In this document: positions 18,176-22,470 of the stretch, one piece after another
Layout of the letters: each line of letters opens with the position of its first letter
Position numbering within the stretch: the stretch's first letter is position 1
Origin: Acidobacteriota bacterium
Lineage (GTDB): Bacteria > Acidobacteriota > Thermoanaerobaculia > Gp7-AA8
Assembly: GCA_021325515.1 (NCBI GenBank)
Contig: JAJPHC010000001.1
Span: forward strand, 68,248 to 132,247
Length of the DNA stretch: 64,000 bases
Direction: 5' to 3'
Notes under the pieces: generated by a model
Database searches by the model: none
Seen by the model: the letters and a program-made list of their open reading frames with translations, nothing else
Told to the model about the DNA's origin: nothing
Position numbers and translations under genes: made by a program

Positions 18176-18268
18176 CCCTGCAGCAGGACGCCTGGGGGTG
18201 GCCTAACGGCCTGAGATCAAACCCTTCGAACCTGACCCGGCTCATACCGGCGTAGGGAACGGCAGATC
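18176..18268 (+). promoter_or_regulatory. TPP (THI-box) riboswitch
   Basis: GGGGGUGGCCUAACGGCCUGAGAUCAAACCCUUCGAACCUGACCCGGCUCAUACCGGCGUAGGGAAC matches the conserved CUGAGA ... ACCCUU.GAACCUGA.C.GG.U.AUACC.GCG.AGGGAA core. Lies ~55 nt upstream of the TonB-dependent receptor ATG. Outer boundaries are approximate. Confidence 0.85.
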
Positions 18269-18323
18269 AGATCGAAACCTTCTCACCAGCGCCCTCTGGA
18301 AAAACTTCGTTGAAGAGGTTTCC

Positions 18324-20585
18324 ATGAAGGCATTCACCGCAGTTCTCACATTCCTTTTCACCGCGGCTCTGCACGCGGCGACGGTTCGCGGCGTGATCAA
18401 GGATGCGGCCGGAGCCCCGGTTGCCGGAGCGCTCGTCTCCTGCGGCTCGATGCACGCATCGAGTGACGCGAAGGGGATGTTCATCCTCGAACAGGCGGAT
18501 TGCGCGAATCTCGAGATCGCGCATCCCGGCTTTCAAAGCGCGAGTGTTGCGGCGGCCGCAGACGTCGCCGTGACGATGCGGCCCGCGCTCGCGGAATCGA
18601 TCGTCGTCTCCGGCATTCGCGCGGACGCCACGGTTCCCGTCACCAGGACCGACATGCCGCGCGAAGAAATCGAGCAGCGTTACTACCAGCAGGACATTCC
18701 GCTCCTGCTGCGCGACACGCCATCCGTCGACTCCTACACGGAAGCCGGCGTCGGCGGATCGGGCTACTCGTACTTCACGCTGCGCGGCATCAGTCCCACG
18801 CGCCTCAACTTCACGCTCGACGGCGTGCCGCTGGCGGACTCCGAAGACATGGGGACGTACTTCGCCGACTTTCCGGATCTCGCGCGCTCGCTGCAGTCGA
18901 TTCAGGTGCAGCGCGGAGTTGGGACGTCGACGGTGGGCAACGCCTCGTTCGGCGGCTCGATCAACATGCAGTCGATCGATCTGTCGCAGAGCGAGAAGAT
19001 GGATGCGCGCATCGCCGGCGGGTCGTACGGCTCGCATTTCGCCACGATCGGCTGGCAGAGCGGATTCCACGACGGGTTCGCCGCCTATCTGCGCGCATCG
19101 GCGAACGAATCGGACGGATATCGCGATCACAGCGGCGCGAATCAGCGCAACCTCTTCTTCAGCGTTGCGAAGCAGAATGAGGATTCCCAGCTCCGCCTCA
19201 CCGGATTCTCAGGCCACGAGCGCCAGCACATGTCCTTCTACGCGGCGGACCTCGCGACGCTGGAGACGAACATCCGCGCGAATCCGCTGTCGCCCGAGGA
19301 TCGGGACAGCTTCGGCTACGACCTGGCGCAGCTTCAGTATCTGAAGTCGCTCTCGCCGTCGATGGACATGACGGCGTCGGTCTACTACCAGCGCGGCTAT
19401 GGCTGGTACCGCCTCTTCGATGACGAGACGGCGAAGAGCGGCATGCGCCAGTACGGCATCGACGGCGCGCTGATCGGCACGCTGGCGTCCTTCAGTTGGA
19501 CGAGCGGACCGTTGACGGCGAAGTACGGTCTCAACGTCAACGAGTTCAAGCGGACGCACACGCGCGATCTCGTCGGCGTGCAGCGCGACTACTCCAACTA
19601 CGGCACGAAGGGCGAGGCGAACGTCTTCGCGAAGCTCTCGTACGACCGCGGCCGCTGGCACACCTACGGCGACGCACAGGTGCGCTACACGAATTTTCAC
19701 TATCACGGCGATGTCGCGATCGCGCCGATTCACTGGACGTTCTTCAATCCGAAGCTCGGCGCGCGCTATGACCTCGCGCCGGGGTCCAGCATCTACGCAT
19801 CCGCCGGCATCTCGACGCGCGAACCGACGCGCAACGATCTCTTCCAGGGGGAGGACAACGCGACCGTCGCGCACGATCTGCACGCCGTGCGCCCCGAGCG
19901 GCTGCTCGACCTCGAAGCAGGCTGGGACTATCACGATGCGCGTCTCGATCTGAAGGCGAACGTCTACGCGATGGAGTTCCGCCATGAGATCGCGTCGACC
20001 GGCGAGCTCTCCGACATCGGCCTGCTGCTGCGCAGGAATGTCGATCGCAGCGATCGGCGCGGCATCGAGCTCGATGCAGCATGGCAGCCGGTGCGCAGCG
20101 TTCATCTCCGCACGACCGCGAACCTCAGCACGAATCGCATCCACACCTGGACGCAGTTCTACGACGTCTACGATGAGGCGGGAGCGTATCTCGAGAGCAA
20201 GCCGCTCGTCTTTCACGACGTGCAGCCGGTGCTGACGCCGCGCGCGATCCTCAGCCAGTCGATCGATGTGACGCCAACATCGCGCACCTCGCTCGGACTC
20301 ACCGGCCGTTACGTCGCGAAGTCGTATCTAGACAACAGCGACAACGCGGACTTCATCGCGCCGTCGTTTTTCGTGGTCGACGCAAACGCCGGCCTCGATG
20401 TGACGTCGCAGATTCGCGTTTCGCTGCAGGTGAACAATCTCGCGAACCGCCATCGCATTTTCTCCAGCGGCTACGACTATCTCTTCATCAATCGAACCGG
20501 AACGAGCGAGACGATCAGCGGCACTCCGTACTACTACCCGCAGGCGTCGCGCAACGCGGTCGTCATGATCGATTTCAAGATGTAG
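18324..20585 (+). CDS. TonB-dependent outer-membrane receptor (N-terminal carboxypeptidase-regulatory-like domain, plug, barrel)
   Basis: Signal peptide MKAFTAVLTFLFTAALHA, plug motifs (FTLRGISPTRLNFTLDGVPL), and a 753-aa beta-rich sequence ending VVMIDFKM. Confidence 0.85.
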   Translation: MKAFTAVLTFLFTAALHAATVRGVIKDAAGAPVAGALVSCGSMHASSDAKGMFILEQADCANLEIAHPGFQSASVAAAADVAVTMRPALAESIVVSGIRADATVPVTRTDMPREEIEQRYYQQDIPLLLRDTPSVDSYTEAGVGGSGYSYFTLRGISPTRLNFTLDGVPLADSEDMGTYFADFPDLARSLQSIQVQRGVGTSTVGNASFGGSINMQSIDLSQSEKMDARIAGGSYGSHFATIGWQSGFHDGFAAYLRASANESDGYRDHSGANQRNLFFSVAKQNEDSQLRLTGFSGHERQHMSFYAADLATLETNIRANPLSPEDRDSFGYDLAQLQYLKSLSPSMDMTASVYYQRGYGWYRLFDDETAKSGMRQYGIDGALIGTLASFSWTSGPLTAKYGLNVNEFKRTHTRDLVGVQRDYSNYGTKGEANVFAKLSYDRGRWHTYGDAQVRYTNFHYHGDVAIAPIHWTFFNPKLGARYDLAPGSSIYASAGISTREPTRNDLFQGEDNATVAHDLHAVRPERLLDLEAGWDYHDARLDLKANVYAMEFRHEIASTGELSDIGLLLRRNVDRSDRRGIELDAAWQPVRSVHLRTTANLSTNRIHTWTQFYDVYDEAGAYLESKPLVFHDVQPVLTPRAILSQSIDVTPTSRTSLGLTGRYVAKSYLDNSDNADFIAPSFFVVDANAGLDVTSQIRVSLQVNNLANRHRIFSSGYDYLFINRTGTSETISGTPYYYPQASRNAVVMIDFKM

Positions 20586-20591
20586 CCGCCG

Positions 20592-21155
20592 ATGTCCGGT
20601 CTCGAAGTCTTTGCAGCATTCATCACCGTCGTCAGCATCGTGCTGACGGCGGTGGAGAACATCTGGTGCTGGCCGACGGGCGTGGTGAGCGTCGTGCTGT
20701 ATGCGTGGATCTTCTGGCAGGCGCGCTTCTATGCGAATGCCTGGCTGCAGATCGTCGTCTTTCTGCCGCTGATCCTCTACGGCTGGTACGCCTGGCTGCG
20801 CGGCGGTGAGGCTCATGGCGAGCTGCGCGTCGCGCGCACGCCGTTGTGGGGATGGATCGCCACGATCGTTCTCGGTGCCGCGGCGACGGCCGCGACCGCA
20901 TGGTGGATGAAGGTCCACACCGACGCGGTGATGCCGCTGGCCGACGCCGGCACGACCGCGTTCTCGATCGTGGCCGAGGCGATGACGGCGCGGAAGTGGA
21001 TCGAGAACTGGCTGATCTGGGTCGTCGTGGATGCCGTCTCGACGTGGATGTTCGTCACGCAGAGGCTCTATCCGAGCGCGGTGCTGTACGGGATCTTCGT
21101 GCCGCTGGCGGTGTATGGATGGATCGAATGGAAGCGATCACTCGCGTCTGCCTGA
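20592..21155 (+). CDS. PnuC-family transporter (PnuT-like, given the TPP riboswitch context)
   Basis: 187 aa, ~7 TM. Has PnuC-like features (VENIWCWPTGVVSVVLYAWIFWQARFYANAWLQIVVFLPLILYGWYAW). Starts 6 nt after the receptor stop. Confidence 0.75.
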   Translation: MSGLEVFAAFITVVSIVLTAVENIWCWPTGVVSVVLYAWIFWQARFYANAWLQIVVFLPLILYGWYAWLRGGEAHGELRVARTPLWGWIATIVLGAAATAATAWWMKVHTDAVMPLADAGTTAFSIVAEAMTARKWIENWLIWVVVDAVSTWMFVTQRLYPSAVLYGIFVPLAVYGWIEWKRSLASA

Positions 21156-21646
21156 TCGGCCCGCCGTCGACGGGGAAGAGCGGGCTCGCGCGCGCGCTGG
21201 CGCGGCATTTCGGCGTGCAGTGGACGCCGGAGTTCGCGCGCGACTACGCGAAGGTGGTCGGGCGCGAGCTGACGGCGGAGGACGTGGGGCCGATCGCCGC
21301 CGGCCAGGCCGCGATCGAGAATCGCTGCAGCGGCAGCCTTCGCATTCTCGACACCGATCTGCTGAGCACCGTCGTCTATGCGCGCTTCTACTACGGCGCG
21401 TGTCCGCGATGGATCGAAGACCAGGCACGGCAGCGCCGCGCCGATCTCTATCTGCTGATGGATATCGATCTGCCGTTCATAGAAGACGGCGTGCGCGACA
21501 GCGGCGAGCGGCGTGCCGAGCTCTTCGACCGATTCCGCGCCGCGCTCGAGGAGTTCGGGGCCGAATACCGCGTCATCAGCGGCAACTGGGAGGAGAGAAA
21601 AAGGCAGGCCCTCGCCGCGATTCCCGTGTCCTATGCCGCGCGGTAA
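21119..21646 (+). CDS. P-loop kinase-like ATPase, NadR C-terminal (ribosylnicotinamide kinase)/AAA_28-like
   Basis: ORF 20846..21646 trimmed to ATG 21119 or 21128 (MEAITRVCLIGPPSTGKSGLARALA). Walker A GPPSTGKS, Walker-B-like ILDTD. Overlaps the end of the PnuC-family gene. Confidence 0.65.
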   Translation: MDRMEAITRVCLIGPPSTGKSGLARALARHFGVQWTPEFARDYAKVVGRELTAEDVGPIAAGQAAIENRCSGSLRILDTDLLSTVVYARFYYGACPRWIEDQARQRRADLYLLMDIDLPFIEDGVRDSGERRAELFDRFRAALEEFGAEYRVISGNWEERKRQALAAIPVSYAAR

Positions 21647-21652
21647 TCGCTC
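21631..21652 (+). repeat. left copy of a 22-nt direct repeat CTAYGCCGCGCGGTAATCGCTC
   Basis: ctatgccgcgcggtaatcgctc here versus ctacgccgcgcggtaatcgctc at 30937-30958: 21/22 identical with an 18-nt exact core, in the same orientation. Spans the kinase stop codon. Confidence 0.6.
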
Positions 21653-21908
21653 GGCCACGAAGTGATGCTCTCCGCAGATGAGGACAGGGCGGTGGAACGC
21701 GTGAGCTCAGGACGACGATGGCCATCGCCGGGCGTGGGTGGGTGGGGATCCCAGCGCCGATCGCATTAATCGCGCGGATGAATGCGATCGCGTGGCAATC
21801 ATCCGGCCACGAGCGCCCTTTGAATAAATCCGCAGCAGACGCGCATCGCCGACATCAGCGTAAGAGCACGATAGCCGTTACCGTGATCGCGACGATCGTG
21901 AGCAATAG

Positions 21909-22470
21909 CGCTCCAATCATCCGCAGCATGCCGTTGTTTTCTGCGTCGACGAGAAGACAGCCATTCAGGCCCTGGACCGACTCGATCCCGTACTGCCGTT
22001 CTCACCGGGGCGACTTGAACGCCACGGATTCGAGTACTTCCGACATGGAACACTTTCTCTCTACGCAGCGCTCAATACAAAATCGGGAGAGGTCATCGGC
22101 AAGACGGCAGCACGTCACACCAGCGAAGAGTTCGTCGCCTTTCTTTTATCCGTCGTGTCGTCGAAGCCGAAAGGTAAAGAAATCCACATCATTCTGGACA
22201 GTCTCTCGGCTCACAAAACCGACGCGTGAAGCAGTTCATGGTCGACTCCGAACGTAACTCTGCATTACACGCCCACGTACTCGTCGTGGCTTAATCAAGT
22301 GGAGATCTGGTTCAGCAAAATCGAGCGCGACGTGATCAGTCGGGGTGTCTTCACATCGATACCGGATCTACGCGGCAAACTGATGACCTACATCACCCGC
22401 TACAACGATCAACCACGGACGATTCGCTGGAGCTACGTCGACGTCTCCAAACGGATCACCGGTCCCAAAC
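21909..22470 (+). pseudogene. IS630-family transposase remnant (5'-truncated, disrupted)
   Basis: Frame-0 translation reads ..NHPQHAVVFCVDEKTAIQALDRLDPVLPFSPGRLERHGFEYFRHGTLSLYAALNTKSGEVIGKTAARHTSEEFVAFLLSVVSSKPKGKEIHIILDSLSAHKTDA*. TGA falls at 22227-22229. A locally shifted stretch (VKQFMVD in another frame) follows, then ..PNVTLHYTPTYSSWLNQVEIWFSKIERDVISRGVFTSIPDLRGKLMTYITRYNDQPRTIRWSY. There is no N-terminal HTH region. Ends are approximate. Confidence 0.8.

Follow-up and report, generated by a model that had tools for sequence, protein, structure and literature searches.

A probable thiamine acquisition operon with a predicted RNK-type thiamine kinase in thiamine-auxotrophic Acidobacteriota

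Introduction

This report focuses on a short operon in a 64,000-nucleotide stretch of DNA (the window) from an uncultured bacterium of the Thermoanaerobaculia, phylum Acidobacteriota (assembly GCA_021325515.1, contig JAJPHC010000001.1, positions 68,248 to 132,247). On its forward strand, a thiamine pyrophosphate (TPP) riboswitch is followed by genes encoding a TonB-dependent outer-membrane receptor, a PnuC-family transporter and a small P-loop kinase, the last related to the ribosylnicotinamide kinase (RNK) domain of NadR. An earlier note on this DNA had proposed that an RNK/AAA_28 kinase fills the slot of thiamine pyrophosphokinase (TPK) here and was recruited for thiamine trapping. It is nearly certain that the locus serves thiamine uptake. 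Read from its sequence and genomic distribution, it is probably an operon for thiamine acquisition that TPP represses in a thiamine auxotroph, and its RNK-like kinase is predicted to trap thiamine as the monophosphate. The locus comprises the following features.

18184-18276, + strand: TPP riboswitch aptamer (THI element), compact, with a short P3 (Rfam RF00059, 62.5 bits)
18277-18323, + strand: expression platform, a hairpin around a Shine-Dalgarno-like sequence directly before the ATG
18324-20585, + strand: TonB-dependent outer-membrane receptor, 753 aa, assigned by its Pfam domains
20592-21155, + strand: PnuC-family facilitator, 187 aa (PF04973, 2e-48)
21128-21646, + strand: stand-alone NadR-RNK-like P-loop kinase, 172 aa (PF13521 AAA_28, 3e-35)

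The Riboswitch and the Three Genes

The aptamer was matched by Rfam cmscan over the full RF00059 model (positions 1-105, E 7e-10), and its score lies above the Rfam gathering score of 54.3 bits. The riboswitch that the earlier note had placed before a TonB receptor is thus recognized by the covariance model. It is the single TPP riboswitch of the whole genome (5.38 Mb in 63 contigs, 99.8% complete). An alignment of 20 orthologous aptamers from several families contains 48 invariant columns, and the aptamers of this operon family have the compact form of the TPP riboswitch with a very short P3 region.

Between aptamer and receptor gene, a hairpin at 18298-18323 is present in the minimum-energy and centroid folds alike. 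Its stem pairs GGAAA (18298-18302) with TTTCC (18319-18323), and the Shine-Dalgarno-like GAAGAGG (18312-18318) lies inside. A terminator scan from the aptamer to the start codon returned no terminator-like site. Because a hairpin enclosing the Shine-Dalgarno-like sequence is predicted and no terminator follows the aptamer, the likeliest mode of control, as judged from the predicted hairpin of the window, is translational repression in which the ribosome-binding site of the first gene would be hidden. The fold of the whole leader was not more stable than that of shuffled sequence (z 0.15). In an alignment of 15 leaders conservation was restricted to the aptamer, and no platform structure was common to the orthologous loci. 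An upstream promoter scan returned no sigma-70-like site, a type of scan that is uninformative for Acidobacteriota.

The open reading frame of the receptor starts 48 bases downstream of the aptamer. Its Pfam matches run from Plug (PF07715, 1e-13) to TonB_dep_Rec_b-barrel (PF00593, 6e-28), the order of plug and 22-strand barrel domain of this receptor type. The N-terminus is signal-peptide-like and is followed by a CarboxypepD_reg match (2e-06) that falls below Pfam's cut-off. Orthologues in related loci, also downstream of a TPP riboswitch, are 40-63% identical to this protein, which is a candidate thiamine receptor and OMthi analogue.

The pnuC gene starts 6 nt past the receptor stop and has its own stop codon at 21153-21155. 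The protein matches NMN_transporter (PF04973) with 165 bits against a cut-off of 27.3, and also TIGR01528 above its cut-off (82 bits). The WxxW(x)3D/N motif in TM6 of Pnu transporters, as defined in PMC5749112, is found as WLIWVVVD, and profile and motif together place the protein in the Pnu family. It is a candidate thiamine channel, assigned to PnuT by genomic context alone. The kinase gene begins inside pnuC in a different reading frame. From the ATG at 21128 the overlap with the end of pnuC is 28 nt, and from an alternative ATG at 21119, which gives a protein of 175 aa, it is 37 nt. The kinase gene is probably translationally coupled to the channel gene. The gene order described in the earlier note, with a PnuC-family gene 6 nt after the receptor and overlapping an RNK-type P-loop kinase, proved accurate in its coordinates and its description.

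A terminator scan after the kinase gene returned no terminator-like site. Directly after the operon lie a degenerate IS630-like remnant and a cassette for an Rhs toxin (window 21646-22470).

Conservation of the Operon

A sample of 401 Acidobacteriota genomes was searched with the kinase, and homologues were found in 45. Their loci are of two kinds. In the first, a receptor gene is followed by pnuC and a short kinase gene; in the second, a NadR-like fusion of an NMN adenylyltransferase (NMNAT) with an RNK domain stands beside pnuC, and there is no receptor. A TPP riboswitch lies upstream of the receptor in all 18 loci of the first kind for which upstream DNA was fetched (17 at or above the Rfam gathering score, one at 54.2 bits). 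At loci of the second kind, Rfam found no TPP riboswitch.

A profile search of public species-representative genomes with the short kinases gave at least 593 matching stretches, and the best 80 were analysed. They belong to Acidobacteriota (Thermoanaerobaculia, Vicinamibacteria and Holophagales) and to many Gemmatimonadota, with one metagenome-assembled genome each labelled Chloroflexi and Sumerlaeota. Among these 80, pnuC is found directly upstream of the short kinase in 77. The closest public locus (L002), from a Thermoanaerobaculia metagenome-assembled genome, has the same four elements as the window. A covariance model derived from the alignment of 20 aptamers placed the riboswitch before the receptor in 30 further public acidobacterial loci, a few of which come from genomes also in the phylum sample. 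About 50 acidobacterial loci in total carry the operon with its riboswitch. Since the order recurs in 18 loci of the sample, in the closest public locus and in 30 other public loci, the arrangement of riboswitch, receptor, pnuC and kinase is not due to chance.

One of the 18 sample loci departs from this order (L056:2780-5389, genome G143). There, the receptor is followed by a kinase match and pnuC is absent; the match covers residues 4-124 and lies in the open frame of the receptor. The usual three genes are present in two other genomes of its genus, and the departure may reflect a deletion or a faulty assembly.

In Gemmatimonadota, eight loci were found in which a TPP riboswitch and a receptor stand beside the pnuC-kinase pair in varied orientations. 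The thiamine module of this phylum is often split. In two loci (L104 and L127), the riboswitch and receptor share a contig with the pnuC-kinase pair at a distance of about 10 kb and are divergently oriented. Five Gemmatimonadota genomes were examined that have the pnuC-kinase pair and no TPP riboswitch nearby. Four of them lack ThiC, and each of these four has a single TPP riboswitch, located before a receptor 35-38% identical to that of the window.

Thiamine Gene Content

Five operon genomes, that of the window and four from other families (97-100% complete), were checked in depth. No TPK, ThiC, ThiE, ThiN-type thiamine-phosphate synthase or ThiK was found in them. ThiG was likewise not found, apart from one chance-level match, and the search for ThiM gave weak partial matches in long open reading frames, none of them convincing. 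ThiL scored above its curated cut-off in all five. In these genomes thiamine is neither made nor assembled from precursors, and the sole thiamine enzyme left is ThiL, which converts thiamine monophosphate (ThMP) to TPP.

The same profile was followed through the phylum sample, in which ThiC was found in 324 of the 401 genomes. Of the 77 genomes without ThiC, 30 encode the short kinase, 19 encode TPK, three have a NadR-like kinase only and 25 have no gene of these three types. ThiC is thus missing from every one of the 30 genomes with the short kinase (Fisher p 1e-24). The NadR-like kinases served as an internal control and occur about equally often in genomes with and without ThiC (odds ratio 1.05). 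In no genome did the short kinase and TPK occur together, and no TPK was found in any of the 45 sampled genomes with a kinase homologue. The tallies include one unpublished genome (G024), which enters solely as ThiC-positive and ThiL-positive and on which no specific claim rests.

The distribution of ThiL points to the product of the kinase. TPK makes TPP directly and so renders ThiL dispensable, whereas a kinase that makes the monophosphate renders it indispensable. Of the 30 short-kinase genomes 26 have ThiL, and among those with a completeness of 90% or more the figure is 24 of 25; of the 19 ThiC-less genomes with TPK, only 2 have it (p 1e-07). The retention of ThiL suggests that thiamine monophosphate would be the product of the short kinase.

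Some other acidobacteria (G054, G093, G129 and G264) have ThiC and TPK and no ThiL. This combination suggests a route like that of yeast, in which thiamine phosphate would be dephosphorylated and the thiamine then pyrophosphorylated by TPK.

The Kinase

The kinase matches AAA_28 (PF13521) with 122 bits. To the NCBIfam model of NadR (TIGR01526), it aligns over the RNK part alone (positions 163-324 of 325), with 90 bits against a cut-off of 341. The protein has neither an NMNAT (CTP_transf_like) domain nor a helix-turn-helix domain. A bifunctional NadR was therefore rejected, as the NMNAT domain is missing and the match to the RNK part is below the cut-off. Membership in the TPK family (PF04263/PF04265) was rejected because the genome of the window has no TPK match. 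Membership in the ThiK family (TIGR02721) was rejected with no match at the cut-off in the five operon genomes; the protein may be an analogue of ThiK.

Among proteins of solved structure, those nearest in sequence are NadR proteins (9x6f, 8x7f, 6gye and 1lw7), which align over their C-terminal RNK domain only. An AlphaFold2 model of the kinase, built with 19 orthologues as input, reached a mean pLDDT of 92.8. When searched with Foldseek, its best match was the RNK domain of NadR 8x7f (TM 0.89), followed by other NadR structures and then by thymidylate kinases. G11, G16 and K17 of Walker A (GxxxxGK[ST]) and D75 and D77 of Walker B are invariant in the clade of the kinase, as are several arginines, and these residues are common to NadR. 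These features identify the protein as a small-molecule kinase of the RNK type, and it is not NadR.

When 37 kinase domains were placed in a maximum-likelihood tree with E. coli NadR as the root, 19 riboswitch-linked kinases and one further short kinase (from locus L038) form one clade with a support of 98/100, and the NadR-like RNK domains fall outside it. When 79 more short kinases were added, a single branch (SH-aLRT 92) set the full 99 short kinases, which come from Acidobacteriota and Gemmatimonadota, apart from the 16 NadR-like kinases. The kinase phylogeny called for in the earlier note thus separates the clade from NMNAT-fused NadR.

Only four positions are class-specific, in that they are kept in the short-kinase clade and differ in the NadR-like RNK domains: V53, S80, H87 and Y89. 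The kinase of the window itself has F at position 87, not H. An attempt to read the substrate from such positions was abandoned, four being too few.

Nicotinamide Riboside Paralogues

Two further genes of the same genome, both outside the window, concern the salvage of nicotinamide riboside (NR).

L060:2956-3981 (contig 34), - strand: NadR-like NMNAT+RNK paralogue (TIGR01526 positions 5-322)
L068:4264-4839 (contig 52): second PnuC-family gene, 191 aa, 38% identical to the PnuC-family protein of the window

Given this separate NadR-like protein and second PnuC, the channel and kinase of the operon are extra paralogues and not the sole genes for NR salvage, which argues against TPP-controlled NR uptake. 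The substrate of the second PnuC is presumably NR. Its gene has no riboswitch and lies between a gene resembling the small chain of carbamoyl-phosphate synthase and a convergent gene with GGDEF and TonB_C domains. Just beyond the start of the NadR-like gene, on the opposite strand, is a cyclic di-AMP riboswitch (RF00379, 75.5 bits, L060 3969-4113).

A Model of Thiamine Trapping and Its Alternatives

In the proposed mechanism, thiamine would be carried over the outer membrane by the TonB-dependent receptor and would equilibrate across the inner membrane by diffusion through the PnuC-family protein, as through PnuT of Shewanella. The purified Shewanella PnuT is a facilitator that binds thiamine and neither TMP nor TPP, so net uptake needs a trapping kinase in the cytoplasm (PMC5749112). 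That part would be played by the RNK-like kinase, which with ATP would convert thiamine to its monophosphate and so keep it in the cell. The chromosomal ThiL would then convert the monophosphate to TPP, and TPP bound to the riboswitch would stop expression of the operon, probably through occlusion of the first gene's ribosome-binding site. The kinase itself is likely to be a thiamine kinase that makes the monophosphate. A trapping role is also supported by a second type of acidobacterial locus, in which TPK fills the same slot after a TPP-controlled receptor. In one acidobacterial family (L070:2156-6952, and also L073, L085 and L086), a TPP riboswitch and a TonB receptor are followed by TPK and then by a 470-aa gene of the sodium:solute symporter family. 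The receptor of the L070 type is 27% identical to that of the window, and the symporter-family protein is a candidate thiamine symporter outside the known families of thiamine carriers.

Several observations weigh against the thiamine assignment. The sequence and fold of the kinase are of the NR kinase type with a shared catalytic core, and no feature of the protein indicates thiamine. For the transporters, 35 PnuC homologues, with that of E. coli as outgroup, gave a poorly resolved maximum-likelihood tree in which riboswitch-linked and NadR-linked proteins were mixed; the phylogeny that the earlier note had asked for did not separate the two groups. The D/N position of the motif varies inside both groups and does not discriminate between them. 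As references, TPK-linked PnuT proteins were sought in Acidobacteriota, and none of 18 TPK loci had a Pnu gene. In the NadR-like paralogue, the Walker A lysine is replaced by Thr (GAESTGTTT), and its kinase half may be inactive, in which case the operon kinase might act on NR too. Thirteen other Gemmatimonadota pnuC-kinase loci have no TPP riboswitch within 5.5 kb, and the fifth of the Gemmatimonadota genomes examined carries ThiC downstream of its riboswitch. ThiL was not found in four of the 30 kinase genomes (three are 69-83% complete, one 98%). Finally, both gene-content p-values ignore shared ancestry, although the 30 kinase genomes come from 11 families.

Part of this evidence bears on where the specificity of the kinase ends. 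It might take both NR and thiamine and serve as a broad-specificity trapping kinase for its own PnuC, and possibly for the second one too. Such a dual role would be favoured by the substituted Walker A lysine of the paralogue, since an NR kinase may otherwise be missing from the genome, and it would suit a catalytic core almost identical to that of NadR RNK with few class-specific positions, as well as the one Gemmatimonadota pnuC-kinase genome that is a ThiC-bearing prototroph. It is nonetheless thought unlikely: the clade tracks thiamine auxotrophy and NadR-like kinases do not, and expression is under TPP control alone. A similarly low probability is given to the P-loop protein not being a thiamine kinase at all and instead making TPP directly, phosphorylating another imported thiamine-related compound or regulating the channel as an ATPase. 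AAA_28 is a broad family, the next-best folds are thymidylate kinases and the substrate is a prediction; against this stand the Walker A and B residues and conserved arginines of a small-molecule kinase, common to RNK, the retention of ThiL, which fits a monophosphate product, and the lack of a thiamine-phosphate synthase that could use precursors.

The other two alternatives change what the operon imports, and both are judged highly improbable. The earlier note had offered, as its own alternative, an NR uptake system of PnuC and NR kinase unexpectedly placed under TPP control. The best family matches of the two proteins, to the NR transporter PnuC (TIGR01528) and to the NadR RNK domain, agree with this, and the unresolved PnuC tree does not speak against it. 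It is disfavoured, however, by the genome's separate NadR-like NMNAT+RNK protein and second PnuC, by the lack of an NMNAT partner in the operon and by the distinct clade of the kinase. In addition, the operon is limited to ThiC-less, TPK-less genomes of the sample, and bona fide pnuC-nadR loci of the phylum have neither riboswitch nor receptor. The earlier note had also left the substrate as thiamine or a precursor. Precursor transporters are under TPP riboswitches elsewhere in bacteria (PMC3766115), as is well established, and salvage of hydroxymethylpyrimidine or thiazole instead of intact thiamine would be compatible with the riboswitch. The five operon genomes have no ThiE, ThiN-type synthase or ThiG and no convincing ThiM, and without a thiamine-phosphate synthase the precursors could not be joined into thiamine phosphate; of the two proposed substrates, thiamine is supported and the precursor is disfavoured. 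The recruitment of an RNK/AAA_28 kinase for thiamine trapping, as the earlier note had proposed, is itself supported by the auxotrophy profile, the retention of ThiL, the separate clade and the NR paralogues.

Relation to Known Systems

The type of operon is already known. In Bacteroides, OMthi (BT2390), pnuT (BT2396) and tnr3/TPK (BT2397) are used under the control of TPP riboswitches (PMC5613172), and a thiamine uptake operon of Bacteroidetes had been predicted by Rodionov et al. (2002, as cited in PMC5613172). The operon of the window resembles it in the TPP riboswitch, the TonB receptor, the Pnu channel and the cytoplasmic kinase, that is, in facilitated diffusion combined with metabolic trapping. 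It differs in that a P-loop homologue of NadR RNK replaces TPK, with a predicted monophosphate product and dependence on ThiL, and in the N-terminal CarboxypepD_reg domain of its receptor. With PnuT of Shewanella woodyi (PMC5749112), the PnuC-family protein shares the seven-helix facilitator type of the Pnu family, the WxxW(x)3D motif and the association with a kinase, while its own membership in the subfamily is taken from genomic context only. In actinobacteria of the acI group, THI elements were reported in 2017 upstream of pnuC-like genes for which PnuT was proposed, and a kinase was not discussed (PMC5301498).

The kinase resembles the RNK domains of NadR from H. influenzae (1LW7) and L. 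lactis (6GYE/6GYF) and of 8X7F in its fold, its Walker A and B residues, its arginines and its Pnu partner. It differs from them as a stand-alone protein of a separate clade, under TPP control in thiamine-auxotrophic hosts, with thiamine instead of NR as predicted substrate. The predicted reaction of thiamine and ATP to thiamine monophosphate (EC 2.7.1.89), with its dependence on ThiL, is that of ThiK (YcfN). The folds of the two are unrelated, that of ThiK being of the aminoglycoside/choline-kinase type. The acidobacterial loci of the L070 type are found in the same phylum and likewise combine a TPP-controlled receptor with a thiamine-activating kinase; they differ in using TPK as kinase and a candidate carrier of the sodium:solute symporter family instead of Pnu, and their genomes mostly lack ThiL.

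A full-text literature search, which left most subscription journals outside its reach, found no paper linking a TPP riboswitch or thiamine to an RNK, AAA_28 or NadR-like kinase. What appears to be new is that TPK is replaced by a stand-alone homologue of the NadR RNK domain, with the predicted reaction of ThiK and an unrelated fold. For Acidobacteriota and Gemmatimonadota, the phylum-wide profile of ThiC, TPK and ThiL, the separate kinase clade and the argument from the paralogues are new results.

Conclusion

Thiamine auxotrophy is common among environmental bacteria, and the exchange of vitamin B1 shapes microbial communities. The only bacterial thiamine kinase known to date is ThiK, which is restricted to enterobacteria and related bacteria. 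In many auxotrophs both ThiK and TPK are missing, and their salvage route lacks one step. There is a good chance that the stand-alone NadR-RNK-like proteins beside PnuC in auxotrophic Acidobacteriota and Gemmatimonadota form a new, non-orthologous class of thiamine kinases (EC 2.7.1.89). If so, this reaction would gain its first P-loop enzyme, with at least 593 matching stretches in species-representative genomes. Public annotations of its members as "NadR-type nicotinamide-nucleotide adenylyltransferase", "nicotinamide riboside kinase" or "ATP-binding protein" would then be wrong, and vitamin B1 and B3 metabolism could be better predicted from the genomes of soil Acidobacteriota and Gemmatimonadota. 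The family would also offer a clean case in which a kinase changed its substrate along with its partner channel. A route from thiamine to ThMP by this kinase and on to TPP by ThiL would explain how exogenous vitamin B1 is used without ThiK and TPK. The salvage step that such auxotrophs lack would be supplied by a P-loop kinase with its origin in NadR, an enzyme of NAD salvage.

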